Positions 40,197-61,468 of a DNA stretch of 64,000 nucleotides are shown here, piece after piece. Position numbers and translations under genes: made by a program. Below the pieces are notes generated by a model. That model saw only the letters and a list, made by a program, of their open reading frames with translations, ran no database searches and was not told the DNA's origin. Each line of letters begins with the position of its first letter. Position 1 is the first letter of the stretch. The stretch covers positions 217,939 to 281,938 of the forward strand of contig CAIKZD010000009.1 of assembly GCA_903831805.1 (NCBI GenBank), in the 5' to 3' direction. The DNA is from an uncultured bacterium. GTDB lineage: Bacteria; Patescibacteriota; Minisyncoccia; Moranbacterales; UBA2206.

Positions 40197-40419
40197 GTAT
40201 TTAAAATAATCATTTATTCAAGATACTGTCTATGTATTCTGCTTTTGTTTGAGTTGATAAGTAGAACCTGACATTAAACTGTTTTATAGTGTTACTTGGA
40301 TTAATTTTATCATAGCTTGCGGCTCCCACTAAGGTTGCTTTCTGAGAAAAATCTCCACTTTTAATGGAATTGCGGAACAAAAAATTTAGGAGAGAAAATT
40401 TTGTTTTCCTTATCGTAAT

Positions 40420-42095: not shown

Positions 42096-42098
42096 AGT

Positions 42099-42927: not shown

Positions 42928-43584
42928 TTATAAATTATCCGTTACTCCAAAAAAATTCTTAATTATCGGATACTCTTGTTTTAAAAAGTATCTTCCCGAC
43001 TCGTTGTCTTTGATGAGAAAAAATTGTTTTTTTATACATTCCTCGTCTTCTTCCAAGCAGGCAATGCAAACGATAAAATCAATATGCGGATATTCTATGC
43101 TGACGGCAGTATTTTCTTTCCAGCTTTCTAAGTCTTTGTCATAAGTCCAGCCGAAACGGTTTAAAATTGTCTTTTTCTCAATAGCAGTGTTGTAGCAAAA
43201 CAATCCGCATAGTGGCTTGATGCCAGGGTCAATGGCTTTTATCCTTTCAAAATTCTTGTTCGTCTTTTTTATGTCTGGTCCGGTTGCGTTGGATTTTACT
43301 TCCAAAACTAATTTGCAATGTCGTGGATCAATCATTACTTGGTCGCCCAATGGGGTCGTGGTTGCCGTGGTTTCGTGAAATATCAAATCACATTCTCCGC
43401 TCTGTATTCCGTTTTTGGCGACTATGCCTTTTTTGCCTCGCAACGATTCTTTTCTTTTTAATACCAAATCACGCAAAAAGTCTTCTCGGATTGTTCCTCT
43501 GGGCAAGTGTTGTTGCACAAATTCCGACACTCGATATTGAGCGCGGAGCAGGTCTTCATAGTATTGTGCAAATATCTCGTCCAT
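42928..43584 (-). CDS. hypothetical protein with PD-(D/E)xK-like motif
   Basis: GECDLIFHE ... LVLEVKSN spacing is consistent with a restriction-endonuclease-like core. The assignment is weak. Confidence 0.35.
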   Translation of the reverse strand: MDEIFAQYYEDLLRAQYRVSEFVQQHLPRGTIREDFLRDLVLKRKESLRGKKGIVAKNGIQSGECDLIFHETTATTTPLGDQVMIDPRHCKLVLEVKSNATGPDIKKTNKNFERIKAIDPGIKPLCGLFCYNTAIEKKTILNRFGWTYDKDLESWKENTAVSIEYPHIDFIVCIACLEEDEECIKKQFFLIKDNESGRYFLKQEYPIIKNFFGVTDNL

Positions 43585-46241: not shown

Positions 46242-49065
46242 AATGTAAAATTTTATTAGTAAATGACAAGATTTCCGTTTGCAACTGCGGAGTGAATAGC
46301 CCCAAGAAACCGCGAGCGTGCAATTTGGTAAATGGCTCGCTAACGAGATCTTTCTTTGTCAGTTCACCATTGTTGATAATAAAATCACGAAGTACAATCA
46401 GAAACTGGATTTGATTTGAAGCCAGTGTGTTATGTTCGGCAATAAATTCAGCAAAAGCCTCCGAGACTTTTTCGGAAAAAGTGACGAGTCCGCCAATACC
46501 CATAATGTATTTAATCAAATCCAAAAACTGTACCTTGCGGGCATCATAGGCTTTTTGCAGGTTCTCTTCGGTTGGATAGGGATCATACTCGTTTAGCGTG
46601 TCAGCCAGTTCTTCCACTTCTTCCTGCGTAATATCTGCACCTTGTTTTATTTTCTGCAATATTTTGTTTTCTGCTTCCAATTTTTTCACCAGCGCCTCAA
46701 CTTTTTCACGATATTTTTTGATAGTAATGCGTTCATGCGCCGGACCAAATTTGATAAATTCTTTTTCGCTTGTTATATCGCGTAAATCCAGAGAATCTTG
46801 GTCGGGCTTGATGCCTTCTTCGCGATATTTCATCAATGGAGCGATTTTTTGGATCAGAATTTCTAAGGCATTTTCATCGGCTTTTTCAAGATAGCCATTA
46901 TTCAATATCTCTTCTATCAGTTCTTTCTCTTTGACGACAACATTCACAGACAACGGCAAATCAGACACCATTTCAATAATTACTTCCGCAAGAGTTTTTA
47001 CCTTTTTATCTTGACCATCTTGTTCATCAAGTTTGGCGATGGAATAATATAAAACTTTAAGTTCAAAGCTCATTGCCTTGTAGTCTTCGCCGGTTCGCGT
47101 GCGCATAAGTGGCGCGATTTCCTTTTCTAAAAATAGTTTTTTATCTTCATTAAGTTTTTGCCAAAAGGTTTCATCGACTTTATCAATCTTGCTTTTTGCG
47201 TCCAAAATAACCACATTGTTTGGTGGAAGTTTGGCAATATCTTCTTTTAATTTTTGAATGGTATTCTGTACAAGCTCAGCATTATTTTGCGCTTCAGCCA
47301 GATTGAGTTTTTGTAGTTTAGTTTCAAAAAGACGGACAGGCAGCGGTTTTGATGGCTTATCTATTTTTCCGGTTGGGTTCATTTGAAAATATTCAAAATT
47401 TTCCCAACAATCAATGATAAGGAATTTATCTTTTACCTTGCACCATGGCTTTATTTTCTTAGCTTCCAAAAGTCTTGTTCCTCGCCCGATCATCTGCCAA
47501 AATTTGGTATAAGAAAAAACTGGTTTTACAAAAACAAGATTGACGAGTTCGCGCACATCTATACCAGTATCAAGCATATCCACGCTAATGGCGATGCGCG
47601 GAAAGTCTTTATTAACAAATTGATCGAGCAGACCGCCTTTTCCATAAACACGAGAATCGTCCGAAACGATAACTTTGGCAATATTGCCTTTATGTTCAGG
47701 GTAGAGATCATCAAAAACTTCTTGTAATCTTCGTGCGTGCTTCATCGTCATGGCAAAGAAAATAGTTTTGCCGGGCAGAGTTCCACTTTCGTCTTTTATG
47801 CACGATTCCATAAACTCTTGCACGATAAGCGCGTTCGTTCCTTTGTTGGTTACTTTTTTCTCAATTTCACTGCCATCATAATTTATTTCTGTTGGCTCTT
47901 TGCCGTCGGCAAGTAATTTTTGTTGTTCGGCAATGGTAATATTGTCTTTTCTTATTCCTTCTTTTTGGAATTTGGTGCGAACTTTTAGAACTTCAAAATC
48001 TGAAAGATATGGGGGCTTATTGTTTATCGCTTCCTCGTATGAGTAGGCATAAGTCGGTATGCCGTCTTCACATTCAAAAATACCAAAAGTATTATGCTCA
48101 ATCGCATCTTTTGGCGTAGCAGTTAAACCAAGCTGAACAGAATCAAAATAATCAAAAATATTTTTGTAAACATTGTAGATTGACCTATGACTTTCATCTG
48201 CCACAATCATGTCAAAAAAATGAGGACTAAGCGGACAGTCTTTATCTTCAATGATATTGAGCATTGTCGGATAAGTAGCACAATAAATTCGTCTATCCGT
48301 TACAATGTCATGCTCGCCGACTTTTGGCCAAACCGGAGCGTTTGGTAAAAATTCTTTAAAAGCATCAAGAGCTTGATTTCTAAGTGCGATTCTGTCCACT
48401 AAAAACAAAACTTTTTGCACTTTGTTTGCTCGCATCAACGACTCAATCATTGCCACGCAGGTTCTTGTTTTTCCGGTACCTGTTGCCATTACAAGCAATG
48501 ATTTTCTCTTTCCTTTGTCTAAGTTTTCAAAAACTGAGCGGATAGCCTCGATCTGATATGGTCGTCCAGCAATGTCTTTCTGGATTAATTCTTGGGAAAG
48601 TGGTTTCTCGTTTTTGCGCAAAAACAACATTCTTTCTAAATCTTTTTTTGTTGGAAATCCGTACACTTTGCGGGGTGGATATTTTTCAGTATCCCAAAAA
48701 TAAATATCGTGTCCGTTTGTATAAAAAACGAATGGCATATCCTTACCAGAATTTTTCTGAATATTTTCGGCATATTGACGGGCTTGTTCTTGTCCGACCC
48801 TCGCATCCTTCGAGGTTTTTTTTGCTTCTACAATTGCCAAAGGATAACCACTATCTCCAAGTAAGGCGTAATCAGCAAATTGAAAGCCTTGATATTCGTG
48901 TTCCGGCTCCTTAACCCCTTCTGGCAAGCCAATCCAAATATCAAGCTCGGATGTAACTTGTGCTGGATCATTAACTTTCCAGCCGGCTTTTGCGAGCCTT
49001 CCATCTATAATTTCTTGTCTTGTTTGTGCTTCAGTTTTTGTCATAATTATTTTCAAGTTAAACAA
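46234..49065 (-). CDS. hsdR: Type I R-M restriction subunit (SF2 helicase + nuclease)
   Basis: Typical HsdR N-terminus (TEAQTRQEIID..AGW), Walker A GTGKT and DEAH-box IVADESHRS. 943 aa. Confidence 0.9.
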   Translation of the reverse strand: MFNLKIIMTKTEAQTRQEIIDGRLAKAGWKVNDPAQVTSELDIWIGLPEGVKEPEHEYQGFQFADYALLGDSGYPLAIVEAKKTSKDARVGQEQARQYAENIQKNSGKDMPFVFYTNGHDIYFWDTEKYPPRKVYGFPTKKDLERMLFLRKNEKPLSQELIQKDIAGRPYQIEAIRSVFENLDKGKRKSLLVMATGTGKTRTCVAMIESLMRANKVQKVLFLVDRIALRNQALDAFKEFLPNAPVWPKVGEHDIVTDRRIYCATYPTMLNIIEDKDCPLSPHFFDMIVADESHRSIYNVYKNIFDYFDSVQLGLTATPKDAIEHNTFGIFECEDGIPTYAYSYEEAINNKPPYLSDFEVLKVRTKFQKEGIRKDNITIAEQQKLLADGKEPTEINYDGSEIEKKVTNKGTNALIVQEFMESCIKDESGTLPGKTIFFAMTMKHARRLQEVFDDLYPEHKGNIAKVIVSDDSRVYGKGGLLDQFVNKDFPRIAISVDMLDTGIDVRELVNLVFVKPVFSYTKFWQMIGRGTRLLEAKKIKPWCKVKDKFLIIDCWENFEYFQMNPTGKIDKPSKPLPVRLFETKLQKLNLAEAQNNAELVQNTIQKLKEDIAKLPPNNVVILDAKSKIDKVDETFWQKLNEDKKLFLEKEIAPLMRTRTGEDYKAMSFELKVLYYSIAKLDEQDGQDKKVKTLAEVIIEMVSDLPLSVNVVVKEKELIEEILNNGYLEKADENALEILIQKIAPLMKYREEGIKPDQDSLDLRDITSEKEFIKFGPAHERITIKKYREKVEALVKKLEAENKILQKIKQGADITQEEVEELADTLNEYDPYPTEENLQKAYDARKVQFLDLIKYIMGIGGLVTFSEKVSEAFAEFIAEHNTLASNQIQFLIVLRDFIINNGELTKKDLVSEPFTKLHARGFLGLFTPQLQTEILSFTNKILHYA

Positions 49066-49082
49066 TGTTATTGTATTCGTTT

Positions 49083-49155
49083 TCCCCTTATAAATAAATC
49101 GTTTTCGTAGCGTAGCGGAGAAAACACCTTATACCCCTTTCTAAATAAATAAAAA
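49083..49155. repeat. F2 shared promoter/leader element copy a (immediately 5' of hsdR)
   Basis: ccccttataaataaatcgttttcgtagcgtagcggagaaaacaccttatacccct; near-identical copies lie 5' of the 429-aa gene and the GIY-YIG gene. Confidence 0.5.
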
Positions 49156-49217
49156 ACAAAATTCAAATTCTTTTTTTGAGCTGGGCGATAGCCCAAAAGT
49201 AAAACATGCATTTCACA

Positions 49218-49585
49218 TAACGTGCGCGGATAATCCGAAGTAGTCGGAGGGAAATTCATTTCCCGACGGCTATTTCGGATATCCGCTGATATCCGATGTG
49301 TCGCAAGCGAAGCGAAGCGGCACAGAGGGTATCGGCGGAGGTATCCGCGCACGATATTCAAAATGGAGCAAGCGTAGCGCGCGACATTTTGGATATCGTT
49401 TACGCATCATCTGAAGTTTTCATCCCGACTTTGCAGGATAAACTTTTGATTTCAAACAATGCTTTATTAAATTATCTCCGCCTAAACCTTCATCTAAACT
49501 AAAGGATGAAAATTTGGGCGGAGGGAAATTGACACTCCTTGAATCGCTTTGGTCAATTTCCTGTAGCCAGATATGCGTTGTTAGG
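49218..49585. repeat. degenerate F3-like copy (49218..49300) plus F3 attC-like copy b (49397..49585)
   Basis: Copy b ends ...cagatatgcgttGTTAGGC on the plus strand (GCCTAAC in gene sense) with the inner box cgcatcatctg. The upstream degenerate copy has gcggataatccg / cggatatccgc boxes. Confidence 0.45.
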
Positions 49586-49639
49586 CGATGAAACTAAAAA
49601 TTTCCTTTCCTAATAATAAAGAATTTTTGGCAATTTTAT

Positions 49640-50353: not shown

Positions 50354-50461
50354 AATTATTTTTTTGTTAATTTATTAAAAATTATTATTAGAACGAGTTG
50401 CCGACCGAGCAAAATTGCCAAAAATTCTTTTCAAAATAGATAGGAAATTTTTAGTTTTTTC

Positions 50462-50611
50462 GCCTAACGTTACTCATATCTGAAGTTTTTGTCTTCCTTC
50501 CTTAGTGTAATATATAAAGAAAAAGAAGGCAAAAATTTGGGTGGAAGAAATTTGCACTCCTTATTATTAGTTATTGATGCAAATTTCTGTAACCAGATAT
50601 GAGTTGTTAGA
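50462..50611. repeat. F3 attC-like element copy c (150 bp)
   Basis: GCCTAAC...GTTAGAC terminal boxes. Inner boxes ctcatatctg / cagatatgag are compensatory relative to copies a and d. Confidence 0.55.
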
Positions 50612-50758: not shown

Positions 50759-52048
50759 TTATTTTTGTTTGTCGGTTAAATTTTGTATCACAGCTTGATT
50801 AACTCTATACATATCCAAAATATTTTTTTCTAATTCGCTTAAATTAGAGATTATATTAATATCGTCTAGGGCATCAAGAGGTTGAGTGATTTGAATAGGA
50901 TTATTGTCACGTGTGCCAATATTTAGCTTTAATAATCCGTTTTCTACATGAGCATCAATTTCGTGCATTGGCCAACGTGTTTGTGCAACTTCTTTTGTGT
51001 TATATTTATGATTTACATCCTCATAGCCAATATATAATGCATCGACTCCAAAGGAGCTTCCGTTTTCACTTTGATATTGTATATACGCAACACGACCGTT
51101 AGAACCTTGGACTGGTTTTGACAATGAAATTTTGTCGTATCCCATGACGATCGCTCTATTTTTTATTACGTCGACATAAAGCTTGCGTCCAATCTCGGTG
51201 CTGATTTTTGAAAGTTCTCTTGCAAGCTGTGCTTCTTCGTGTGAAATGTTTTTCCTAACAGGAGGGGTTAATTTCTCCGACATATCTTCTCTAATTTCTG
51301 AATTGTATTCGAAGGAAAGCATAATATTCTTCGCCTGGTCTCTGAGTGACACACCATAATCTTCTGAGATGAAAGTGTGGCCTCCGTGCGACAAGCTACT
51401 AAACACCTCGGATAAATTATCCACACTTTCCTTATATATTTTCTCCACTTGCTCAATGTTGGATAATTTTTGAAGACTTTTGATATTCATCATTTCTAGG
51501 TCTGCGATTACTATTTTCATATCAACATCGCTCCCTTTTTTTGGAATAACTACAAAAAAGGCATCGAATCTAATTTTGATACCGTAAAGAGCTGCTCTTA
51601 TAAGATCGTGGTGTATATCCTCAAGGGCTTGCACAAAGTTTGTAATTGATTCGATTTTTTCATCTCGACTCTCTTTTATTTTGTTATGTGCAAGGGCGAT
51701 GTTATTGCCAGCATTAAAATCAGTCATTGCGATTTCATTTTTGCCAATTGCTCGAAATGTAGTAGGTATGTGTTTTAATCCAATTATTTTTAATGCACTA
51801 TACACATCAATAGCAACATCACGATTGTAATTACATTCTTCCGCATCATAACCACGAAAATATTTTAGAACTAAATTCATCTCTCTAAAATTTTCGCCTC
51901 GTTCAACACGAGCTACGACACGAGAGATGTTTCCTACATTAGCAAAGCTTAAATTAGGATTATCTATGGGGTCTTCCTCCTTTTTGATTGAAAATTCAGT
52001 TTCCTTGCCACTGCTATGAGAAGCAATTTTGGTTATTCTTTCGAACAT
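50759..52048 (-). CDS. hypothetical protein with weak protein-kinase-like motifs
   Basis: 429 aa. HHDLIRAALYG (HxD catalytic-loop-like) and KIVIADLE (DFG-position-like). Speculative. Confidence 0.45.
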   Translation of the reverse strand: MFERITKIASHSSGKETEFSIKKEEDPIDNPNLSFANVGNISRVVARVERGENFREMNLVLKYFRGYDAEECNYNRDVAIDVYSALKIIGLKHIPTTFRAIGKNEIAMTDFNAGNNIALAHNKIKESRDEKIESITNFVQALEDIHHDLIRAALYGIKIRFDAFFVVIPKKGSDVDMKIVIADLEMMNIKSLQKLSNIEQVEKIYKESVDNLSEVFSSLSHGGHTFISEDYGVSLRDQAKNIMLSFEYNSEIREDMSEKLTPPVRKNISHEEAQLARELSKISTEIGRKLYVDVIKNRAIVMGYDKISLSKPVQGSNGRVAYIQYQSENGSSFGVDALYIGYEDVNHKYNTKEVAQTRWPMHEIDAHVENGLLKLNIGTRDNNPIQITQPLDALDDINIISNLSELEKNILDMYRVNQAVIQNLTDKQK

Positions 52049-52077
52049 GTTTATATTATCTCAAAATATTAATAAAT

Positions 52078-52185
52078 TCGTTTTCGTAGCCTTAGCGGAG
52101 AAAACACCTTTTTCCCCTCTATAAATAGATAAAAAAAACTTATTTTTCCTTATTATAAAAAGCGAATTTAAAAAAGAAAATAAAT
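52078..52185. repeat. F2 shared promoter/leader element copy b (extended homology to copy c)
   Basis: cgttttcgtagccttagcggagaaaacacc...ataaaaaaaacttatttttccttattataaaaagcgaatttaaaaaagaaaa. Confidence 0.5.
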
Positions 52186-52192
52186 TTATTTC

Positions 52193-52319
52193 GTCTAACG
52201 TTAGGCATATCCGAAGTTTTTCTGTAGCGTAGCGAAGGAAAAATTTGGGAGAGAAAATTTTGCTTTCCTTATTTTATTATAAAGTGCAAAATTTTTGAAC
52301 CGGATATGCCTTGTTATGT
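52193..52319. repeat. F3 attC-like element copy d (127 bp)
   Basis: GTCTAAC...GTTATGT on the plus strand (ACATAAC...GTTAGAC in gene sense). Inner boxes aggcatatccg / cggatatgcct. Confidence 0.55.
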
Positions 52320-52387
52320 GATGTAAAATTCTTTCTTTTTTCTTTTTTTAAATTTGCTTTATAAATGATAAATAAGTTTTTTTGTTT

Positions 52388-52431
52388 TTGATTTTGGGCA
52401 GAGGGGTAAGGGGTGAATGCCCAAAATCAAA
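52388..52431. repeat. F1 hairpin element copy c
   Basis: ttgattttgggca-gaggggtaaggggtgaa-tgcccaaaatcaa, followed by a second G-rich-loop hairpin at 52448..52500. Confidence 0.6.
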
Positions 52432-52471
52432 AACTCCTTATTCTTAAACAAAAAGGCAAAAAGGAAGGGGT

Positions 52472-53992
52472 TTAAGGGGAGGGAATTTTTGCCTTTTTGT
52501 TTTCTTTCACCAATTTACTCATTTTTATTTTTGGAGATATTCCTAACTCAAAACATTTTCTTGCCCACGATTCAATCTTTTGTTTTAAAATTATAGAATT
52601 AATTTCGGATATTTTTTTAGGTAAATTCTTATTTTGGATAACTAACCAAATGCAATAATTTTTAAAATCAATATCAATCTTTTTTGTGTTCGCTTTTTTG
52701 CCGATGAGTTCTAATGTATTGTTTGCTTGATCACAGACATAACCTAATTTTTGAGCAGTTCCAAATTTTACGGCATAAACAGTTTCGCCCTTTTTTGAAT
52801 CCCACGCCTCAACTAGCGTTCCAGCTTTAACCTTAATAATTGAAAAGTTTTTATCGGCATCAGAATATCCATGTTCTTTTAGACTTTTATTAAAATCACC
52901 TTCTATGCCAGTAATTTCAAGTAAGTCATTTTCAACTTCATCCAGATCAATGCTATCGATGTATTCGTTTAATTGATCCATATAGTCCTCATTAAATTTC
53001 ATCCACTTACCTTGCGTTAGAAGGACATTTTGATCATCAATAATATAATCTATCGATTCTTTTACAGTTTTAGAAAACGGCTTAGCATCTTCCTTGATTA
53101 TATGAACCCTTATACTGAGAATTTGCTCCTTGGGAATGGAATTCGTTGATATAAAAGTATTTAATCTATCGATTGTAAGTTCTTCGAATTCAGCCGATGT
53201 AAAACTGTCTAAGGAAAATTTATATTTTTCCTGTCCAGAGAAAATAAAATCAATTCCGATAAGCTCATGACTATTTGAAGTGAAATCTGTGCTATCTTTT
53301 GAGGCAATAATCTCTTCTGCTAATTTATTTTCATACCCAACTGTTATAGGGGATGTATCAAGAATGATTGTTCGCGGTAATTTAAATAATTCAGGAGATT
53401 CATAAACTTTAATTATTGATTCTAAAAATTCTGGCAATGCTTCTTTCTCAACTAGTGGACTTAGTAATGAAGAAGAACCAAATTTACCTGACTTGCCAAA
53501 ATTTTCTATAAAATCTTTAGAAATAGATGATTGTAAATAATCGATAGATTCACCACTCTCAATATCCAGTTGGCTATTTTTTGTATAACTTTTTATTTCT
53601 TTTTTCTTTTTTCCCGCGAATTTTTTTGACGATTTTTGTCTGATATCTTTTTGATTCGCAATTCTTTTGGCTATATGAATGCCAAAATCATGATCGCAAA
53701 ATTGTCGTAGATAAAAATGCGATTTCCCATAGCTTAATGCAAAACAATATTTTTCATTTTCCCAAATATAAGCGCAAAAGTAGATTCTATTTTCGGGCTT
53801 ATCTTCGTTGAAAAAATCTTTGTATGTTTCTGCCCACGGAATTTGAATCGGATCAATATCTTTGGAAAAATAAAAATCACCTTTCCAGCCTTTTTCTTCG
53901 CTCGAGTTAATATTTTTAAGTCCTAATGATTCAAATTTATCTTTTAAATCATTGACTTTGTCTTTTGGAATTTTAAAAATATTTAGCTTCAT
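52472..53992 (-). CDS. hypothetical 506-aa protein, last gene of the type IIS R-M operon (resembles the sporadically distributed TIGR04141-like family from memory; unverified)
   Basis: No catalytic motif recognised. Separated by a 6-bp gap from the REase candidate. Confidence 0.5.
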   Translation of the reverse strand: MKLNIFKIPKDKVNDLKDKFESLGLKNINSSEEKGWKGDFYFSKDIDPIQIPWAETYKDFFNEDKPENRIYFCAYIWENEKYCFALSYGKSHFYLRQFCDHDFGIHIAKRIANQKDIRQKSSKKFAGKKKKEIKSYTKNSQLDIESGESIDYLQSSISKDFIENFGKSGKFGSSSLLSPLVEKEALPEFLESIIKVYESPELFKLPRTIILDTSPITVGYENKLAEEIIASKDSTDFTSNSHELIGIDFIFSGQEKYKFSLDSFTSAEFEELTIDRLNTFISTNSIPKEQILSIRVHIIKEDAKPFSKTVKESIDYIIDDQNVLLTQGKWMKFNEDYMDQLNEYIDSIDLDEVENDLLEITGIEGDFNKSLKEHGYSDADKNFSIIKVKAGTLVEAWDSKKGETVYAVKFGTAQKLGYVCDQANNTLELIGKKANTKKIDIDFKNYCIWLVIQNKNLPKKISEINSIILKQKIESWARKCFELGISPKIKMSKLVKENKKAKIPSP

Positions 53993-53998
53993 GCTTAT

Positions 53999-55516
53999 TT
54001 ATGCGGTTACTTCATTTAAAGAGGTTTTCATCTCAAGGCTATTAACAAATTTATCAATATTTGAGATTCTCACTTCCAAACCATCTTTTTTGATAAAATC
54101 AAAGTAGCGTTCGGTATCAATAAAAGATTTTGGCGAGATAAACACGGAATATGATTTTGTGCCTTTTTTTACATATTCTTCAAGGTGTCGATGTATAGAA
54201 AACGACTCTCTGATATGCTGTTGCGTTCCAGTCAGTAAAGTTACTTCGATCAAAACTGTGTCTTTTTCTTCCAAACATTCAATGTCGGGGCTTCCGCCAG
54301 ACGCAAAACTTGTTGGCAAGCCTTCATCGTCGGATATGAAATTAGGTTTTACGATAACATCTGGTAATTTTTTGAGGATTGCCAATGAAGTTAAAAATTC
54401 CAATCGTAATGGTTGCTCAATGACTTTCAAAATATTATCGCTAGAAGATTTTTTCTGTGCCAAATTAAGAAGTTCGGTTTTAATTGAATCCCAAGCATAA
54501 TGATCAACCCATTTTTCCAATTCTGCCTTTGTGGTTTTCGCTGGTGCTCCAAATACGGTAAGCGTTGAGATTAAATCGTGGTCGACTTGTCCGATATACT
54601 CAAAAAATTCTTTTTCCGTTTCAAATTCTTTGTAGGAAATATAATTTTTTAAAATATAATCAACGGTTGTAGATTCTTTTGAGTTTATATCTATAAAACG
54701 ACCACCGCCACGCAAAGAAAGTAAGCCAGTTAAACGCATTTTTCGTATAAAATCGTCAGGATAATCACCAAGGATTGAATTATCATCTCTCTTTGTTTCG
54801 TTTAGCAATTCATAGCAAAGATCTAAAATTACTTCGTTGCTCGGTGTATAACCATGTTTTTTGCGTAATTTTTTAATTTCTCGATATAAACTTTCAGCGT
54901 TATCGTTTTGCCAACATAGCAACAATGGTATTTCCGATCTGGATATACCAGCACCCTTGTATGCTGGGTCATTATTCAAAAGTTTTATGGTTTGTATAAG
55001 CAAAATAAGCGGAACATTTTTATTTAAAACGCGACGAAATGGATTTTGGCGTTGATATTTTGCAAAAGCATTTGCAAAAACCATTAACTCATTTTCTGGC
55101 TTTTCTTTGTCCAATAACATCTTTCCGCTTTCGGAAAATTTTATTTCTTCATTTTGCCAATACCAAACAAAACCAAGTTCTTTGGCAATTTTAAACCAAG
55201 TATCAAATCTTGATGGCCATCCTTTTTCAAACCCTGCTTCTTTGTGGCTTTGAGGGTTGTCGGAAAATACTTTTTTGGTTTCAGTTTCGCTTAATTCAAT
55301 CTCATTTTTCCATTTATCTTTTACAGCCGAAGTTACTTTCATGGGTTGGTATAATCCTTTTTGAATTAAGGATTTGGCGACTTTATCAATAATTTCGTTT
55401 GTTAAAATTTCGCCGTCATATTCCGCAAGTACGGTCAAAAAATCCTTCAACCGTTCAGGATTCCTCATTGTTGTTGTAAATAGCAATGGTTTGTATTCAG
55501 ATTGTCGTTTAGTCAT
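53999..55516 (-). CDS. AlwI-family (type IIS, MlyI/PleI/N.BstNBI-like) restriction endonuclease candidate
   Basis: N-terminal LLFTTTMRNPERLKDF resembles the AlwI-family N-terminal motif. The C-terminal SPDIECLEEKDTVLIEVTLLTG resembles the family's PD..E..EVT catalytic region, as recalled for N.BstNBI. It lies adjacent to two Dam-class methyltransferases. Confidence 0.55.
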   Translation of the reverse strand: MTKRQSEYKPLLFTTTMRNPERLKDFLTVLAEYDGEILTNEIIDKVAKSLIQKGLYQPMKVTSAVKDKWKNEIELSETETKKVFSDNPQSHKEAGFEKGWPSRFDTWFKIAKELGFVWYWQNEEIKFSESGKMLLDKEKPENELMVFANAFAKYQRQNPFRRVLNKNVPLILLIQTIKLLNNDPAYKGAGISRSEIPLLLCWQNDNAESLYREIKKLRKKHGYTPSNEVILDLCYELLNETKRDDNSILGDYPDDFIRKMRLTGLLSLRGGGRFIDINSKESTTVDYILKNYISYKEFETEKEFFEYIGQVDHDLISTLTVFGAPAKTTKAELEKWVDHYAWDSIKTELLNLAQKKSSSDNILKVIEQPLRLEFLTSLAILKKLPDVIVKPNFISDDEGLPTSFASGGSPDIECLEEKDTVLIEVTLLTGTQQHIRESFSIHRHLEEYVKKGTKSYSVFISPKSFIDTERYFDFIKKDGLEVRISNIDKFVNSLEMKTSLNEVTA

Positions 55517-55520
55517 AATT

Positions 55521-56426
55521 TTAATAGTTAGTAATCAGAACTTCTTTAATTATCTTTTTGCCGTTGTTATGATAATTAATGTAGTTGCTTTCAATTTTGT
55601 GTACCTTGTATTTTTTCATCCATTCTAATAAAAAATCATTTTTGCTCCCGTTATAGTGAGTAACATTTGATAAAGCGAATTTAACACCTTTTTTGTCTAA
55701 GACATCAATCATTTTCAATAAATCAATTTCTAATTCCTTGTTCCATAATTTATTATATTCGCTTGCGGATATTAAGTATGGTGGATCTAAATATACAAAA
55801 TCATTTTTTGAATATTTTTTGTCCGCAAAAAACTTTTTGAAATCTTTTGAAGTTATAGATATTTTTTTATCATGTACAAAATCAAAGTAGCCGTTCAAGG
55901 CGTTAATCACATTTTTATTAAAATCAACATTGCCAACAGGTAAATTAAATTTTCCTCCGCCATTGAATCTTAACATTCTATTAAATCCATAAATAAGTAG
56001 GATGTATAAAATCAAGGGGTCGTTTTTTTGATAATTATTTACGCTCATTCTTAATTTATCGTATCCTTCCTTATTAAATCTTGCGTAATAGGTTTTTTTA
56101 AACTCCTTTTTTAACGAATCAGGGACAATATCTTTTTTATATGAGTGCGAAAATTTATATTTGTGGATTATTTTTTCGGTATCCTTGAAAAACTTTTCTG
56201 GATTTTTTGAACTGGCGATTAAAAGTTTTTGAATATTTATCAGATGTTTGTCTATATCATTGAGAAAATATTTTTTTGCCTCAATATTCAGAAATACCGT
56301 GCCACCGCCGACAAAAGGTTCATAAAAATTATTTATTTCTTTGGGAAATAAATTTATGAGTTGTTTCATCAACTTATATTTATCGCCGACATAAAACAGG
56401 GGCGATCTTTTTATTTTATTGCTCAT
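55521..56426 (-). CDS. D12-class (Dam-like) N6-adenine DNA methyltransferase
   Basis: YEPFVGGGTVFLN AdoMet motif and catalytic DPPY (VYLDPPYLIS). Confidence 0.8.
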   Translation of the reverse strand: MSNKIKRSPLFYVGDKYKLMKQLINLFPKEINNFYEPFVGGGTVFLNIEAKKYFLNDIDKHLINIQKLLIASSKNPEKFFKDTEKIIHKYKFSHSYKKDIVPDSLKKEFKKTYYARFNKEGYDKLRMSVNNYQKNDPLILYILLIYGFNRMLRFNGGGKFNLPVGNVDFNKNVINALNGYFDFVHDKKISITSKDFKKFFADKKYSKNDFVYLDPPYLISASEYNKLWNKELEIDLLKMIDVLDKKGVKFALSNVTHYNGSKNDFLLEWMKKYKVHKIESNYINYHNNGKKIIKEVLITNY

Positions 56427-58231
56427 ATTTTTGCTTTCGTTACAAACAGGTATTCCTTGTGATTATTGAAATTGGTATTGCCTGCATTAAAATGTCTATA
56501 ATTTTTTTCAAAAACTTTGGTTGGTCCTTTTTTCTGCAAAATCTGTTCAATCTCTTGGAGTGTAATTTTGTTTTTTGATGAATTACTCTTTGAATCGTAA
56601 GTGTTATTGTATGAAACGACCAAAAATTTAGCGTCAAGGTCTCTCACGAGTTCCGCAAATTTATCTTTGGCGTTGGCTCGGCAGTAGTCGCTCATATTTT
56701 CCGGGTCTGGTTTTAACGCAACCCCATGAAGCTTTGGCTTGTCCCACTTAGTTAATGTTTCAAGTACATGGTAAAATCTGCTGTATTGTCTTGAGTTGTA
56801 AGGTGGGTCAATGTAAACCACATCAGCATTAATTTTTTTTGCCAGATTGTTTGTGTCTTCCTGAAAAATAGTTATTTCTTGCGTATCTATCGGATCAATC
56901 GGTTTCATGAAAAAACTATCATTTACAAATTCTTTTTTAAAATATGCGTCAAAATGTCCGACTGTGTTGGCAATTTTATCGGCGGTATAAAGCAACGAGG
57001 CGATTAACATAAAATATTCTCTCTCAGTTAAGTTTTTCCTGTTTTCCTCTATATTTTCACGAATAAAGCCGATGATTTTCGCTGAATTTTTACTAAAAAA
57101 TTTACCGCCAAAATTTTTAGAAAAATAATTTTCCTCTAAATCATCGCCATAAATATTGTTGTAACTTTTAATAATGTTATCGATTTTGACTTTATTCCAT
57201 GCCTCGTTTCCAAAAAAAGCCTGATATATCGCGTAATTTGAATGCAGAAAGTCGTTTAATAAAACTTTTTCAAAGTGTTTGGTTGCAACAGCGGATACAA
57301 CACCCGTTCCTGCAAAAATATCCGCAAAGGAATTGCCACTGCATTCTTTATTTATTATAGAAAAAATCCATTCAATCAGCTTGTGTTTGTTACCAATATA
57401 TCTGCGATTGTGTAATTGAAGATGGTTTTCTTTCACTTGTGGGATATAAAAATAATTTTCTTGGATTTTTTCAGCGGTTATTTCATAGGATGGTCGTTCA
57501 GTTTCAAACATAGCAAAAAGCGTGCCTTGTATTCCGTCTGCAACATAATCAACGCTTGCTTTTTCCTTATTTAATTTTTCGTAGAAACTGTAATGATTAT
57601 TTTCAGAGATGATAATAAAATCAATAACTGGTATTCCCATTATTTCACCAGCTTGTACGATTTTTTCAATAATTTGATTATCCTTTTCGCTTGGTAAAGA
57701 ATCGCCCGAAGGGTGATTATGAACTAAAATTACACTGGCGGCGTTTAATTCAGTCGCGGGATAAAAAATTTCTCTCGGATGTAGTAGCGCTTTATCTAAA
57801 AGACCGACACTAACAACTTCTTTTTTCAACAAAACATTTCGTGCGTTTAAATAAAGACAAACTAAATGTTCTTTTTTCTTGTCTCTTAAATCGTAAGTAA
57901 GAGATAAAATATCTTGAGAATTTTTTATAACAATCTCGTTGGTTTTGTTTTCGTCGTAAAATCTTTTTACTAATGAAATTGCGGAAGCAATTTGCAATGC
58001 TTTTGCTTGTCCGATTCCTGAAATCTCTAAAAGATCATCAACGGTTATATTCAAAAAGTTTTTACCGAATTTTTTGATAATATTCTCAGAAAGCTGTCTG
58101 ACATTTTTTCCCTTGATTCCGCTACCCAAAAGAATTGCCAAAAGATCACTCTTTGAAAGTGCATCAGCTCCTTTTTTCAGAAACCTTTCTCTCGGACGAT
58201 CAATTTTTGGTATATCCTTAATTTTTGGCAT
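56423..58231 (-). CDS. RadC-like JAB/MPN domain fused to a D12-class N6-adenine DNA methyltransferase
   Basis: N-terminal HhH plus RadC signature (LLHPREIFYPATELNAASVILVHNHPSGD). C-terminal Dam motifs including DPPY (VVYIDPPYNSRQY). Confidence 0.75.
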   Translation of the reverse strand: MPKIKDIPKIDRPRERFLKKGADALSKSDLLAILLGSGIKGKNVRQLSENIIKKFGKNFLNITVDDLLEISGIGQAKALQIASAISLVKRFYDENKTNEIVIKNSQDILSLTYDLRDKKKEHLVCLYLNARNVLLKKEVVSVGLLDKALLHPREIFYPATELNAASVILVHNHPSGDSLPSEKDNQIIEKIVQAGEIMGIPVIDFIIISENNHYSFYEKLNKEKASVDYVADGIQGTLFAMFETERPSYEITAEKIQENYFYIPQVKENHLQLHNRRYIGNKHKLIEWIFSIINKECSGNSFADIFAGTGVVSAVATKHFEKVLLNDFLHSNYAIYQAFFGNEAWNKVKIDNIIKSYNNIYGDDLEENYFSKNFGGKFFSKNSAKIIGFIRENIEENRKNLTEREYFMLIASLLYTADKIANTVGHFDAYFKKEFVNDSFFMKPIDPIDTQEITIFQEDTNNLAKKINADVVYIDPPYNSRQYSRFYHVLETLTKWDKPKLHGVALKPDPENMSDYCRANAKDKFAELVRDLDAKFLVVSYNNTYDSKSNSSKNKITLQEIEQILQKKGPTKVFEKNYRHFNAGNTNFNNHKEYLFVTKAKI

Positions 58232-58233
58232 AA

Positions 58234-59082
58234 TTATTTTTTGTAAATTTCTTCAAGAGTTTTTCCATTTTTGGTTTTCCATTTTTTCCATCCGCTTGTT
58301 GAGTTTCCCAAAATAATATCTGAAGCTGCGCTTGGGCTATTAAAAACATAATCCTTGGTGAATATATAAAGATCACTATCTTTCTTTTCCAAATATCCAT
58401 TTAAAATTAACTTCTCGATGTTCTTTGAGTTTCTTTCGGCTACCGCACTAGAAAATTGAGTTGTGGCTGTAGAATCTTTATATACAACAAAACCTTCGTT
58501 GGTCATACGGCCACTAGCTAAAGCCATTTTGCCACCACATGTAAACAATGGATCGGATGAGTTTGGTTGCTCTTTTGAGGTAATCTCTTGCAAAATAGGA
58601 TAACCGACCGCAGTAAGAAGTAATTTTAAGTTACTTAAAAATTCTTCCATTTCAGCAATATCGGCTTCGGACAATGAGGGCAGTACTGATTTGGCGCCAT
58701 TCTCTAAATTAAATCTTTTTACTAATGTAGCAATTTCTATACACCTACTTTCAAGATATTTTACATGTGCTTTTGTGAGGTTATTGTCTTTACTTACAAA
58801 AGCTATTGCAGTAAACCAAAAGTCTTTTGAGCTATCATGTGTAATCAATCTGTTCCATAAATTTTCAGCTTCACCTATGTATGCAGTAGACAGTAGGGCT
58901 TCTTCATCTTCTTTTCCAATTAAAAAATAAACTGCAGGCTTGTTGCAATCGGGGCGTTGTTTCGTGTCCTTGAGTTTATTACGTGGAATAACTATTGCTT
59001 GACCCACCCAGTTGCTTAACTCAACAGTTTTTAGACCATTTGGTTCACCATCGACGAGAAAAATTTTAATTGTCTTTGCCAT
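58234..59082 (-). CDS. GIY-YIG nuclease with DUF4357-like C-terminal domain
   Basis: VYFLIG ... YIGEAENLWNRLITH are GIY-YIG motifs. First gene of the operon. Confidence 0.6.
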   Translation of the reverse strand: MAKTIKIFLVDGEPNGLKTVELSNWVGQAIVIPRNKLKDTKQRPDCNKPAVYFLIGKEDEEALLSTAYIGEAENLWNRLITHDSSKDFWFTAIAFVSKDNNLTKAHVKYLESRCIEIATLVKRFNLENGAKSVLPSLSEADIAEMEEFLSNLKLLLTAVGYPILQEITSKEQPNSSDPLFTCGGKMALASGRMTNEGFVVYKDSTATTQFSSAVAERNSKNIEKLILNGYLEKKDSDLYIFTKDYVFNSPSAASDIILGNSTSGWKKWKTKNGKTLEEIYKK

Positions 59083-59119
59083 ATTTTATCTAGGTCAAGT
59101 AATTGAATTATATCAGTTT

Positions 59120-59245
59120 TCCCCTTATAAATAAATCGTTTTCGTAGCGGAGCGGAGAAAACACCTTATACCCCTATATAAATAGATAAAAAAACTTATT
59201 TTTCCTTATTATTAAAAAAGCAAATTTAAAAAAAGAAAAAAGAAA
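59120..59245. repeat. F2 shared promoter/leader element copy c
   Basis: ccccttataaataaatcgttttcgtagcggagcggagaaaacaccttatacccct...ataaaaaaacttatttttccttattattaaaaaagcaaatttaaaaaaag. Confidence 0.5.
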
Positions 59246-59282
59246 GAATTTTATTTCACATAACTCTTTATATACGAACTGA

Positions 59283-59311
59283 TTGATTTTTTGTTGTTAA
59301 TTGGCTATAAT
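59283..59311 (+). promoter_or_regulatory. near-consensus sigma70 promoter TTGATT-N17-TATAAT for the recombinase gene
   Basis: Hexamers and spacing read directly from the sequence, 30 nt upstream of the ATG at 59342. Confidence 0.45.
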
Positions 59312-59341
59312 CCAGATATAAACTTTAAATCATAATGTGTT

Positions 59342-60178
59342 ATGAATGAAAGTTATTATCCAAGTCAAGATCCAATTTTAAAATTGAAGCAGGAAATGAA
59401 ATTGCGGAAGTTTAGTCCGAAAACCGTCAAGTCCTATTTATATTATATCACGGATTTACTGAAGCAATCAAACAAAAATCCCAAAACTGTCAATACGGAC
59501 GATATTCGGGGATATTTAGAATATCTAGCTGACAAAAATTTCGCTGCTTCAACCCTAAATGGTGCCTATAGTGCTTTCAAACTCTACTTTGAAAAAATCC
59601 TTTATCGTCATTTCTTTGCCAATATTCCACGCGCCAAATGCCCCAAAAAATTGCCGGAAACCCTCACCAAAGAAGAGGTGAAAAAAATTCTAGGCACGAT
59701 TCAGAACGTAAAACACAAGCTGTTACTAGGATTGATGTATTCATCAGGACTGCGAGTTTCGGAAGTTGTGAATTGCAAGGTCAAAGATTTGGATTTTGAA
59801 AGCAAATTGATGCGGGTGCGCCAAGCCAAGGGAGCTAAGGACAGAATGACTATCTTATCAGAAAAAATGATTGTTGTTTTGCAAAGATATTTAAAGAATA
59901 AAAAATCTGACGACTATGTTTTCGAAAGCGACCGTGGTGGCAAACTGACTGAAAGAACGGCTCAGAAAATTTTTTGCGACGCCTTGCAAAAATCTGGCAT
60001 CAAAAAACCGGCTACTTGCCACAGTTTGCGCCATTCTTTTGCCACTCACCTCTTGGAATCCGGCACCAGCATCCGCTATATCCAAGAACTTCTTGGCCAT
60101 GCACGCCTCGAGACCACGCAAATTTACACCAAAGTGGCCAACACGAACCTGCAAACTATCAAAAGTCCATTAGATTAG
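59342..60178 (+). CDS. tyrosine site-specific recombinase (Xer/IntI-like)
   Basis: R..H.LRHSFATHLLESG...IQELLGHARLETTQIYTKV catalytic R-H-R-Y region. The KVKDLDF..RVRQAKGAKDR patch and the KSPLD tail resemble integron integrases, but the IntI-specific extra domain is absent. 278 aa. Confidence 0.85.
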   Translation: MNESYYPSQDPILKLKQEMKLRKFSPKTVKSYLYYITDLLKQSNKNPKTVNTDDIRGYLEYLADKNFAASTLNGAYSAFKLYFEKILYRHFFANIPRAKCPKKLPETLTKEEVKKILGTIQNVKHKLLLGLMYSSGLRVSEVVNCKVKDLDFESKLMRVRQAKGAKDRMTILSEKMIVVLQRYLKNKKSDDYVFESDRGGKLTERTAQKIFCDALQKSGIKKPATCHSLRHSFATHLLESGTSIRYIQELLGHARLETTQIYTKVANTNLQTIKSPLD

Positions 60179-60187: not shown

Positions 60188-61138
60188 ATGCCAGTCAAAA
60201 CTATTGCTGACCTCCAGAAAGAATACGCCGGCCGGATCGACCATCTTGATTTGGAACTTTTGATCGCGCATACCATCAAAAAACCGCGCGAATTCGTCAT
60301 GGCACACCCGGAATACACTCTTTCGCCAGCGAAAATTGAAACTTGTAAATTGAAACTTGCTCGCCGGATGCGGGCGGAGCCCTTAGCCTATATTTTAGGC
60401 TCTAAGGAGTTTTTTGGCCTCCCCTTCCTGGTATCGCCTGCCACCCTTATCCCCCGCCCTGAGACCGAATTGATGGTGGAGATGGCGTTGGAAGAGGTCG
60501 CCAGTCATCGGTCATCGGTCATCGGTATTGTCGATGTAGGCACCGGCAGTGGAAATATCATTATCTCCATTGCAAAAAACTTAGAGAGTCTTTGTCATCC
60601 TCGCGTAGGCGGGGATCCAGTCGCGCATCAAAAAGTTTCTACACTAGATTCCCGTCTTCACGGGAATGACAGATATAATTTTTACGGCATAGATATTTCA
60701 AGAGATGCACTCGCTGTCGCCAAGCGTAACGCCAAAAAAAATGATGTCGCAACAAAAATAAAATTTCTGCACGGTAATTTATTAGAACCACTCATTCAAA
60801 ATTCAAAATTCAAAATTCAAAATTCCAAGATGATAATTTTAGCCAATCTTCCCTATCTCTCCAAAAAAATTTATGCCGCCACGGCACCCACTGTGAAAAA
60901 ATTTGAGCCGAAGTCCGCGCTATATTCTGCCAAAGAAGGCTTAGCGCATTATGAAAAATTATTCCAACAACTGAAAGAGCTGACGACCAACAACCGAGAG
61001 TTAATGGCCATCTTAGAATTCAGTCCTGAACAAAAAGCTGCACTACAAAAATTGATTCTAAAATATTTCCCTAAAGCTAGAGTAATTTTCAAAAAAGACT
61101 TAGCCCGGAAATGGCGCTTAGCTATCATTACGCCTTAA
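60188..61138 (+). CDS. prmC: release factor glutamine methyltransferase PrmC (HemK) with unusual insertions
   Basis: VDVGTGSGNI AdoMet motif and NLPY (NPPY variant). It is 316 aa, longer than typical, and contains two in-frame heptamer tandem repeats and a roughly 90-bp TIR-flanked insertion. Confidence 0.8.
   Translation: MPVKTIADLQKEYAGRIDHLDLELLIAHTIKKPREFVMAHPEYTLSPAKIETCKLKLARRMRAEPLAYILGSKEFFGLPFLVSPATLIPRPETELMVEMALEEVASHRSSVIGIVDVGTGSGNIIISIAKNLESLCHPRVGGDPVAHQKVSTLDSRLHGNDRYNFYGIDISRDALAVAKRNAKKNDVATKIKFLHGNLLEPLIQNSKFKIQNSKMIILANLPYLSKKIYAATAPTVKKFEPKSALYSAKEGLAHYEKLFQQLKELTTNNRELMAILEFSPEQKAALQKLILKYFPKARVIFKKDLARKWRLAIITP
60494..60514. repeat. (gtcatcg)x3 in-frame tandem repeat in prmC
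   Basis: Read directly; encodes SHRSSVIG. Confidence 0.7.
60797..60824. repeat. (caaaatt)x4 in-frame tandem repeat in prmC
   Basis: Read directly; encodes QNSKFKIQNSK. Confidence 0.7.
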
Positions 61139-61339: not shown

Positions 61340-61468
61340 CTATTTCTTTTTCTTAGTCGCTTTCTTTTTGGTAACTTTTTTCACAGCTTTCTTCACGGTT
61401 TTTTTCACAGCTTTCTTAGCAACTTTTTTCACAACTTTCTTCTTGGTAACTTTTTTCTTTGTAGCCAT
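61340..61468 (-). CDS. 42-aa Lys/Ala/Val-repeat basic protein (histone H1/Hc1-like tail), not in ORF track
   Basis: Manual translation gives MATKKKVTKKKVVKKVAKKAVKKTVKKAVKKVTKKKATKKKK*. SD ggaaggtga lies 9 nt upstream. A hairpin gaccaatt..aattggtc lies downstream. Confidence 0.5.
   Translation of the reverse strand: MATKKKVTKKKVVKKVAKKAVKKTVKKAVKKVTKKKATKKKK

Follow-up and report, generated by a model that had tools for sequence, protein, structure and literature searches.

An AlwI-family restriction-modification operon with a RadC-methyltransferase fusion, predicted to be one cassette of an integron-like array in a Patescibacteria genome

Introduction

The AlwI family of endonucleases, to which AlwI, MlyI, PleI and N.BstNBI/N.BspD6I belong, provides the nearest described relatives of a restriction-modification (R-M) operon found in a 64,000-nucleotide (nt) stretch of DNA from an uncultured Moranbacterales bacterium (GenBank assembly GCA_903831805.1, contig CAIKZD010000009.1, positions 217,939 to 281,938 of the forward strand; the whole stretch is called the window, and coordinates refer to it). 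Two adenine methyltransferases accompany the endonuclease, the first of them fused to RadC. M.FokI is a two-domain fused D12 methyltransferase of a type IIS system, and the DpnII system includes DpnA, a methyltransferase that is reportedly specialized for incoming single-stranded DNA (ssDNA). RadC is a competence-regulon protein in streptococci; it is predicted to process nucleic acids and is a repeated component of the establishment and anti-restriction modules that mobile elements carry. The reading considered likely here is that a core of three R-M genes, with two optional companions called S14 and DUF6119, forms one cassette of an array that has a XerA-like recombinase.

Other described systems hold or move genes as discrete modules. 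Sedentary chromosomal integrons, exemplified by the Vibrio cholerae superintegron with its integrase VchIntIA and its VCR attC sites, are among these. In the pdif modules of Acinetobacter plasmids and the integrative mobile elements exploiting Xer (IMEX), the genes lie between inverted recombination sites and are mobilized by a Xer-type recombinase; dif-type sites are duplexes of ~28 bp with two arms and a 6-8-bp spacer. What defines an integron integrase is an IntI-specific additional domain around patch III, according to Messier & Roy 2001 as cited in PMC9668308.

The R-M operon and its conserved core

Five co-directional open reading frames (ORFs) of the minus strand fill positions 52472-59082, with successive gaps of 2, -4, 4 and 6 bp in the ORF list; the first-pass annotation of the window had given the same five ORFs, coordinates and gap range (-4 to +6 bp), and these stand. 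In reading direction they are S14 (58234-59082, 282 aa), an optional leader of the cassette; the RadC-M1 fusion gene (56423-58231, 602 aa); M2 (55521-56426, 301 aa), which overlaps M1 by 4 bp; R (53999-55516, 505 aa); and a DUF6119/TIGR04141 gene (52472-53992, 506 aa), which occupies a variable slot after R. The motifs quoted in that annotation are likewise all present: the 602-aa protein has HNHPSGD and DPPY, the 301-aa protein has DPPY, and the 505-aa protein has TTMRNPER and SPDIECLEEKDTVLIEVT.

The RadC module (57575-58231, minus strand; aa 1-219 of the fusion protein) consists of a UPF0758_N helix-hairpin-helix region and a JAB/MPN domain, and matches UPF0758_N (1e-22), Pfam RadC (1e-36) and the RadC homologue in PDB entry 2qlc (3.5e-25). 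The 602-aa protein scores 216 bits against the NCBIfam RadC equivalog (cut-off 180), and the metal motif HxHPSGxxxPSxxD is intact as HNHPSGDSLPSEKD, which places the module within the RadC (UPF0758) family. The rest of the protein is the M1 domain (56423-57427, minus strand; aa ~269-602), a D12-class N6-adenine methyltransferase with FAGTG and DPPY motifs that matches MethyltransfD12 (PF02086) at 2e-36 and PADLOC PDLC03373 at 1.5e-124. M2 is a Dam-family D12 N6-adenine methyltransferase, also with DPPY (PF02086 4e-32; TIGR00571 dam 146 bits, cut-off 115; T4 Dam 3e-38; DpnM 6e-19). The earlier claim of two adenine methyltransferases, one of them fused to RadC, is thus confirmed by profile matches, in which both enzymes are of D12 class and the RadC part is full-length. 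M1 resembles the N-terminal half and M2 the C-terminal half of the fused two-domain D12 models PDLC03287 (646 aa) and PDLC03292 (722 aa); unlike in those enzymes, the halves are separate genes here, the first with RadC at its N-terminus.

In R, an N-terminal region for recognition is followed by a PD...EVT cleavage domain at the C-terminus. Hidden Markov model searches uphold its earlier assignment to the AlwI family: it matches Pfam RE_AlwI at 1e-42 (147 bits, cut-off 23) and the PADLOC REase_II model PDLC03507 at 5e-130 over aa 2-503, its full length. The cleavage domain aligns with both BspD6I subunits in the PDB (4e-11 for the small subunit and 2e-10 for the other), and the alignment covers the catalytic motif PD...E-V-T. 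A recognition domain with a separate PD-(D/E)XK-type cleavage domain in an RE_AlwI enzyme is the type IIS arrangement, and M1 and M2, both with intact FxGxG and DPPY motifs, are the two methyltransferases expected for the two strands of an asymmetric site. Judged from these matches, the region holds a type IIS-type R-M operon of the AlwI family, whose three core genes are RadC-M1, M2 and R. It is a system of that family with split FokI-type D12 methyltransferases, and the literature searched, in which absence is no proof of novelty, contained no description of RadC-methyltransferase fusions or of an architecture with split M1 and M2 and RadC.

A locus scan with one genome per species returned 47 genome loci, which include Uhrbacteria, Saccharibacteria and many other Patescibacteria as well as metagenome-assembled genomes labeled Gammaproteobacteria, Nitrospirae, Desulfaltia, Atribacteria, Planctomycetia, Margulisbacteria, Elusimicrobia, Bdellovibrionales and Nanoarchaeota. 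In ~30 of the 47, which come from >15 phyla, M1, M2 and R are co-linear, keep the same spacing and are 61-98% identical. S14 lies directly upstream of RadC-M1 in nine of these loci and downstream of R in two; DUF6119 occurs in none of them and recurs in three contexts, the window included. The triad is therefore the conserved unit, and the first-pass reading of a five-gene system does not hold, since only RadC-M1, M2 and R are conserved together. This triad is horizontally mobile and nearly unchanged across many phyla. The RadC-methyltransferase fusion itself is found in >120 clusters at the 90% level (601-606 aa, 79-97% identical), and because all of them carry both domains it is not an assembly artefact. 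A search of IMG/VR for phage carriage gave no relatives of the fusion protein.

The RadC part could nevertheless have no role in R-M, a housekeeping radC having been fused by chance and the fusion now hitch-hiking. This is somewhat unlikely, and it is the alternative that survives best. The RadC part does score above the cut-off of the housekeeping RadC equivalog, and the biochemical function of RadC is not known in the literature. Moreover, M1 genes without RadC exist (L040, L043, L044, L046 and L047; L numbers denote the loci compared), as does a 655-aa M1-M2 fusion (L045), and these variants are presumably functional. In distribution, however, the fusion far exceeds the other forms, and a sister cassette (L035-37 and L063) carries the same RadC head, 91-96% identical, on a second and much more divergent D12 methyltransferase, so that the identity of the whole protein to that of the window is only 61-65%. 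That cassette encodes a different AlwI-family system, with a 605-aa endonuclease of N.BstNBI type (PDLC03393, 1e-134) and a beta-class methyltransferase. A RadC head on two different AlwI-family systems indicates that the fusion was retained or re-created and argues that it is maintained by selection; the recurrence of RadC in establishment and anti-restriction modules points the same way. The endonuclease is less constant, and in some loci R is replaced by a 25-50%-identical AlwI-family enzyme with the methyltransferases kept at ~75%. A decayed copy is seen in L050 (9974-12612), where an ORF starts with the N-terminus of the RadC fusion (MPKIKDMPKK), the RadC domain is missing and unrelated ORFs interrupt the M1 gene.

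The cassette array and its recombinase

The first-pass annotation overlooked the context of these genes: the R-M block is one cassette of an integron-like array that adjoins a tyrosine recombinase. The array consists of five cassettes of low GC content over ~19 kb (40.4-59.3 kb), between prfA and prmC, and all cassette genes are on the minus strand and point away from the divergent recombinase. Starting from the recombinase, the cargo is the R-M operon (cassette C1), a protein without family match (C2), a predicted lipoprotein (C3), a type I R-M system with a Pycsar-type pair (C4) and a KilA-N domain protein (C5). The boundaries were found by blastn of the window against related loci, followed by repeat analysis and inspection of the sequence. 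In the blastn comparisons a non-coding head upstream of the first gene and a tail after the last gene travel with the genes, including into Nitrospirae, and copies of this head and tail also flank other gene blocks of the window.

Cassette C1 (52313-59264, minus strand, 6.95 kb) is the first of the array and holds the triad, S14 and DUF6119 between its own head and tail. The head (5'E, 59107-59264, minus strand) starts on the gene strand with GTTATGTGAAAT, has an inner leader common to the heads of C2 and C4, and is homologous to the region upstream of RadC-M1 in L006, L008, L013, L034-36, L051 and L056-60. The tail (3'E, 52313-52471, minus strand) contains a long hairpin, TTTTGATTTTGGGCA...TGCCCAAAATCAAAA, within ~52380-52434, ends on the gene strand with ...ACATCACATAAC and is homologous to L006 and L056. 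The outer 103 nt of the head (59162-59264) are complementary to 52313-52415 at 75%. Such inverted-repeat ends are found in all of C1 to C4, the plus strand of each block starting with GTTRRRY and ending with RYYYAAC. Around C2, 50606-50655 pairs with 52150-52199 (50 nt, GTTAGACG.../...CGTCTAAC, 90% complementary, own-end score 51); around C3, 49580-49637 pairs with 50411-50468 (58 nt, GTTAGGCG.../...CGCCTAAC, 83% complementary, with the canonical GTTAGGC...GCCTAAC); and around C4, 41393-41471 pairs with 49151-49221 (GTTATGTG.../...CACATAAC). Each cassette end complements its own partner best, with own-end scores of 39-58 versus 12-37 across cassettes, and this own-end pairing is a classical signature of integron cassettes.

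The blocks are separated by attC-like sites of 100-200 nt. On the gene strand they read CATC-RYYTAAC, 2 nt, L'' (e.g. GGCATATCTGG), a variable two-hairpin part, L' (CAGATATGCC) and then (G/T)AAAC-GTTAGRC; when folded as ssDNA, the junction sites have z scores of -3.8 to -5.3. The site closing C1 (52192-52323, minus strand; 134 bits, fold z=-4.1 and -5.3) is composed of R'' CACATAAC, L'' GGCATATCCGG, the variable two-hairpin region, L' TCGGATATGCC and TAAC-GTTAGAC, whose R' starts the next cassette. Further sites, all on the minus strand, lie between C2 and C3 (50461-50616, 110 bits, fold z=-5.0), in tandem at 49214-49590 (a strong one at 49390-49590 with 65.8 bits and a weak one at 49214-49298 with 23 bits), between C4 and C5 (41296-41403, 106 bits) and, as a degenerate partial copy, after the KilA-N gene (40357-40423, 15.8 bits). 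No ORF lies between the tandem sites, where the sequence is GC-rich (49220-49400), and this interval may be an empty or decayed cassette.

A covariance model of the site was trained on seven copies, and the strong match at 49390-49590 was outside the training set. In the window the model finds four strong, one weaker and one partial site, only on the minus strand and only within 40.4-52.3 kb; beyond the window it finds arrays in L006, L013, L025 (Atribacteria), L035 and L036 and single sites in Nitrospirae loci. No match was found in 109 kb of loci that have the R-M or accessory genes outside arrays. Among 44 aligned sites, 96.8% of cells are paired, compensatory changes affect 8 of the 10 pairs of the L stem and the covariation score is 0.47, versus at most 0.065 when the partners are slid; a reservation about these figures is that the aligned sites were themselves fitted to the model. 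The R stem, TAAC/GTTA, hardly varies. RYYYAAC...GTTRRRY boxes around an L''/L' hairpin conserved in structure are the hallmark of integron attC sites, and the consensus, the folds and the covariation of the present sites all display it.

The recombinase gene (59342-60178, plus strand, 278 aa; Phage_integrase 2e-45) is divergent from the array. The protein matches the NCBIfam family 'recomb_XerA_Arch: site-specific tyrosine recombinase/integron integrase' with 242 bits (cut-off 220) and aligns end to end with Pyrococcus XerA (4a8e, 1e-47); against VchIntIA the alignment is in two pieces (3e-42), query residues 183-201 spanning residues 180-241 of the chain. Between recombinase and first cassette lies a junction (59265-59341; …CACATAAC|TCTTTATATACGA…) whose motif, ATTTC-RYRTAAC|TCGTT..TATACGA, is found upstream of related recombinases in most of nine aligned loci, L051 diverging. 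Going by sequence, this junction looks like an attI. Recombinases 40-50% identical adjoin the R-M cassette in L008, L034, L036, L051 and Nitrospirae loci. A metagenome scan with an alignment of these recombinases gave 80 loci, and sites were counted around the 26 closest (at least 45% identical): 28 sites lie upstream (118 kb) and none downstream (125 kb), 27 of the 28 are on the strand opposite to the recombinase, and 15 of the 22 loci that extend 300 nt or more upstream contain a site, usually at a spacing of 0.6-1.7 kb.

The array and the recombinase occupy ~20 kb between prfA (38731-39828, plus strand) and prmC (60188-61138, plus strand), genes that are adjacent in many bacteria. GC content is 0.30-0.39 over most of 40-60 kb, compared with 0.43-0.50 for most of the remaining window. 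L065 is the orthologous platform of a related genome (prfA 70%, recombinase 89% and prmC 54% identical); prfA and recombinase are only 4.6 kb apart there, with three sites and with small ORFs unrelated to the cassettes of the window. An attC-like site lies directly ahead of the S14-led R-M cassette in L013 and, ~8 kb from the recombinase, ahead of a 64%-identical RadC-methyltransferase gene in L082, so that such cassettes are not always the first. In Nitrospirae the same unit of head, genes, tail and site is present beside a 48%-identical recombinase. The literature searched contained no integrons or such platforms in the candidate phyla radiation (CPR)/Patescibacteria.

Several observations weigh against calling this an integron-like array. 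The recombinase falls below the cut-off for integron integrases (TIGR02249, 220 bits versus 265) and lacks the ~43-residue IntI-specific domain that an integron integrase is defined by; because it is this domain that contacts extrahelical bases in true integrons, integron-style chemistry is only an analogy here. With its gene 9 bp ahead of prmC, the enzyme could be a housekeeping Xer. Classical integron cassettes lack inverted ends of 50-100 nt and a head and tail in common. Cassette polymorphism was not seen, all 18 of 18 contigs with an identical recombinase sharing the same first cassette, which means that the array is sedentary at population scale. Finally, most triad-bearing loci have no detectable attC-like site, so the cassette is not the sole vehicle for the triad.

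Some of these points would suit an ordinary chromosomal defense island in which REP/BIME-like or terminator hairpins lie near a housekeeping Xer and no cassette ever moves. A full-length XerA-like recombinase without the IntI domain just upstream of prmC, a tail element that holds a terminator-like hairpin, an array identical in all contigs of the population, and a Y1 (IS200-type) transposase in the recombinase's place in L061 all fit such an island. It is nonetheless a quite unlikely explanation. It does not account for the one-sided distribution of sites around related recombinases with its fixed strand polarity, nor for the GTTRRRY end of each cassette being complementary to its own distant RYYYAAC end. 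The Nitrospirae unit beside a diverged recombinase and the orthologous platform with different content also speak against it, as do an L stem that covaries and R boxes that are conserved in sequence. In L061, a Nitrospirae contig, the transposase gene (382-834, IS200/IS605-type) lies upstream of a cassette with the R-M genes and DUF6119. Just ahead of the cassette head in L056 there is a scaffold gap (5509-5540), with a stretch of N between two copies of a 20-nt string, which leaves the attI-side junction uncertain there.

The gene identities, the modularity of the blocks, the cassette boundaries, structured sites of fixed geometry and a platform content that differs between genomes are established by these comparisons. 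The array shares with sedentary chromosomal integrons a divergent recombinase, a co-oriented array, boxed sites that are homologous within the array, with a covarying inner stem and a variable tip, an attI-like junction, a content that varies between related genomes, and defense genes as cargo. It differs from them in the missing IntI domain, in multi-gene cassettes of up to 7-8 kb, in the 50-100-nt inverted ends and in the shared head and tail. The co-oriented array beside a recombinase, the attI-like junction and the matching of cores between a cassette's own ends are thus all in place, as are attC-like sites, and what is absent is the domain by which the integrase is defined; as far as sequence can tell, the array is integron-like and not an integron. 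In contrast to pdif modules and IMEX, the sites of the window are structured elements of 80-200 nt with a covarying stem, and the array has one dedicated recombinase with a fixed polarity to it.

Besides sites and inverted ends, the cassettes share further non-coding parts. An 81-nt tail element follows the last gene of C4, C2 and C1 (41453-41533, 50657-50737 and 52364-52444) in copies that are 86-100% identical; its hairpin, TTTTGRATTTTGGGCA - 17 nt - TGCCCAAAATYCAAAA, could be a terminator or a protein-binding site. A shared cassette head (49035-49221, 52067-52184 and 59083-59241) includes, besides a small hairpin, CGTTTTCGTAGCGGAGCGGAGAAAACAC, the leader ...TTATAAGGGGAAAAC.... In C4 the leader ahead of hsdR is nearly identical to the one that precedes RadC-M1 in the Nitrospirae locus L056, which points to a standard leader for expression that different cassettes have in common. 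No credible family came out of an Rfam search of 38-64 kb, and a scan for promoters and terminators found no enrichment relative to shuffles.

Cleavage mode and recognition site of R

The likeness of the operon to MlyI, PleI and N.BstNBI, proposed in the first-pass annotation, holds for family membership; N.BstNBI is not a closest relative, the match of R to the N.BstNBI-type model PDLC03393 being partial (6e-35). R resembles N.BspD6I in the cleavage domain only. Its N-terminal recognition part has no significant similarity to that enzyme, so the specificity of R is probably not GAGTC. The methyltransferases differ too, R being paired with two D12 enzymes and the N.BstNBI-like sister cassette with one D12 and one beta-class enzyme. 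It is very unlikely that R is a strand-specific nicking enzyme or the subunit of a heterodimer, like N.BstNBI/BspD6I. N.BspD6I and its small subunit are indeed the only solved relatives of R, and PADLOC models of nicking type also match it, but the best full-length match is the non-nicking PDLC03507 (5e-130), against which the nicking model is partial and far weaker; the ORF list of the cassette contains no small-subunit gene, and the truly N.BstNBI-like enzyme, of 605 aa, is the one in the sister cassette.

Word avoidance was assessed from 5-mer counts with a Markov correction, for the host part of the window, for the whole window and for 17 pooled loci. GGATC, GAGTC, GGATG and GCATC all showed no specific depletion, GGATC and GAGTC none beyond that of their sub-words, so that word avoidance points to no recognition site; this counts against the reading of the operon. 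Only GATC is depleted, with 358 occurrences observed versus 453 expected in the host part (0.79) and 82 versus 141 in the array, and this depletion is not specific. The likeness of M2 to T4 Dam and the GATC depletion would be compatible with a site that contains GATC, e.g. GGATC.

Accessory genes of the cassette

The genes on either side of the triad were earlier described as extras beyond a minimal R-M system, and this description proved apt. S14 matches the PADLOC candidate family PDC-S14 (PDLC04925), itself a candidate only, over its full length (aa 2-280 of 282, 6e-105), as well as phrog_12629 (2e-74), and has a C-terminal DUF4357/RAMA-like domain (aa 223-276, 5e-22). The earlier label of a GIY-YIG/DUF4357 nuclease is right for DUF4357, and the GIY-YIG part is supported at the level of motifs only (VYF..YIGEAENLWNRLITH near the N-terminus). 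Residues VYF(52), YIG(68-70), R78, H82 and E111 are invariant across 21 homologues, and NCBI names homologues of S14 'GIY-YIG nuclease family protein'. On the other side, Pfam GIY-YIG reaches only E=0.06 and 14 bits (cut-off 22.6), hhalign of S14 with two small GIY-YIG proteins gives a probability of 4% over YIGEAENLWNRLITH, and AlphaFold models of S14 and of the DUF6119 protein gave no fold match; the AlphaFold2 (AF2) model of S14 has a predicted local distance difference test score (pLDDT) <50 at the N-terminus.

Homologues 78-79% identical to S14 lead unrelated operons. One is composed of a helix-turn-helix (HTH) gene, S14, a D12 methyltransferase and an endonuclease of NmeDI type, and another of S14, a fused D12/beta methyltransferase and a 463-aa protein. 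S14 is too conserved to share the specificities of these differing R-M operons and appears from such comparisons to be a generic companion of adenine-methyltransferase R-M operons. Fusions of DUF4357 to GmrSD, GIY-YIG and T5orf172 domains have been reported, and the domain also goes under McrB as an alias; from this S14 is inferred to be a stand-alone accessory nuclease. Unlike the type IV enzymes with DUF4357 (GmrSD and McrB fusions), S14 leads adenine-methyltransferase R-M operons, here and in three further loci. An HTH_3/HTH_19 gene of 69-70 aa, which resembles an R-M controller (C) protein, precedes S14 in L004 (8935-9144), L005 (213-422) and L146 (6783-6995); in the window no ORF for a C-protein regulator is found at 59083-59341.

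The 506-aa protein matches Pfam DUF6119 (2e-21, 76.5 bits, cut-off 27) and TIGR04141 (4e-13, 48.6 bits, cut-off 35), and 302 homologues were found. Its AF2 model has a pLDDT of 78 and no fold match in the PDB, searches of PADLOC and PHROG gave no match, and the literature searched held nothing on DUF6119 function. The gene stands behind R in the window and in a Nitrospirae genome (88% identity, gap 5-6 bp), behind the sister cassette in a Moranbacteria-type genome (87% identity, gap 1 bp) and alone in a Hahella island. Elsewhere the slot after R is taken by SIR2-HerA (L006), DUF4297-HerA (L035), an AriA/PtuA-like ATPase (L013), a GajB-like helicase (L008), Shedu SduA (L004) or an AAA_16 protein (L001). 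By this position DUF6119 is a defense candidate. That the five genes form one obligate five-component system, with S14 and DUF6119 mechanistically required, is the least probable of the alternatives, since the tight spacing of 2 to 6 bp, the few-bp gap at which DUF6119 follows RadC-type R-M cassettes in three contexts and the S14 genes that abut R-M genes in 11 loci are outweighed by the triad occurring without S14 and DUF6119 in most loci, by unrelated known defense systems in the slot after R, and by closely similar S14 genes at the head of unrelated R-M operons and DUF6119 alone in Hahella.

Other cassettes and flanking features

Cassette C2 (50606-52199, minus strand) has one gene, for a 429-aa protein (50759-52048, minus strand) that found no match in Pfam, NCBIfam, PADLOC or PHROG and is a defense or cargo candidate by its context. 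C3 (49580-50468, minus strand) encodes a 237-aa protein predicted to be a lipoprotein from a signal-like N-terminus and a weak match. C4 (41393-49221, minus strand) carries HsdR, HsdM and HsdS, followed by a DUF6602 gene (42928-43584) that lies between the type I R-M genes and a Pycsar-type pair (41595-42911, minus strand), in which a 270-aa cyclase (Guanylate_cyc, 5.5e-05) is coupled with a 166-aa PycTM effector (1.5e-15). C5 (40357-41303, minus strand) holds the gene of the KilA-N domain protein (40420-41253) and ends the array.

On the prfA side, a MazG/PRA-PH-like gene is found at 39834-40196 (minus strand). Between prmC and the next gene, an AT-rich stretch (61365-61447) contains short tandem or overlapping direct repeats (TTTTTCACAGCTTTCTTCACGG-like, family D6).

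Proposed mechanism and significance

In the mechanism proposed here, M1 and M2 would each be responsible for N6-methylation of the adenine in one strand of an asymmetric site, which may include GATC, and R would cut unmethylated DNA beside that site. The recombinase would excise and insert cassettes in integron style at the G|TT of the R boxes, through folded attC-like DNA. S14, with its GIY-YIG-like domain and DUF4357, would act as an independent accessory nuclease, most likely attacking DNA that the R-M system cannot cut, and DUF6119, judged from its slot, would be an independent defense gene. The most speculative step concerns RadC, whose helix-hairpin-helix and JAB parts may couple M1 to incoming, single-stranded or replicating DNA and so let the cassette establish methylation before restriction; that RadC helps the methyltransferase on such DNA is held with low confidence. 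The DpnII system, likewise with two adenine methyltransferases and one endonuclease, is an analogy only, offered for this proposed role, and DpnA differs in that it is not a D12-class enzyme and has no RadC domain.

More broadly, and with somewhat less than even confidence in the proposal as a whole, the operon may be cargo of an undescribed class of integron-like platforms, in which the RadC fusion would aid safe establishment after single-strand-mediated transfer. Such platforms, with a XerA-like recombinase and long attC-like sites, would be widespread in Patescibacteria and present also in Nitrospirae and Atribacteria, and they would carry whole multi-gene defense systems (type IIS and type I R-M, Pycsar, SIR2-HerA and others) with a standard head and tail.

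Two aspects of this locus stand out as most interesting: a RadC-methyltransferase fusion of wide distribution, and the integron-like platform of cassettes on which it is carried. The fusion links methylation and restriction to RadC, a protein over whose function there has been dispute for decades, and provides an experimentally tractable handle on this protein. Additionally, two defense candidates emerge by 'guilt-by-position', DUF6119 from the slot after R and PDC-S14/DUF4357 from the leader position. If the reading of the platform is true, cassette capture of integron type extends to recombinases without the IntI domain, and a whole class of platforms would escape tools that require this domain. 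In that case a major route for complete defense systems between the ultra-small CPR bacteria and other phyla could run through such arrays.

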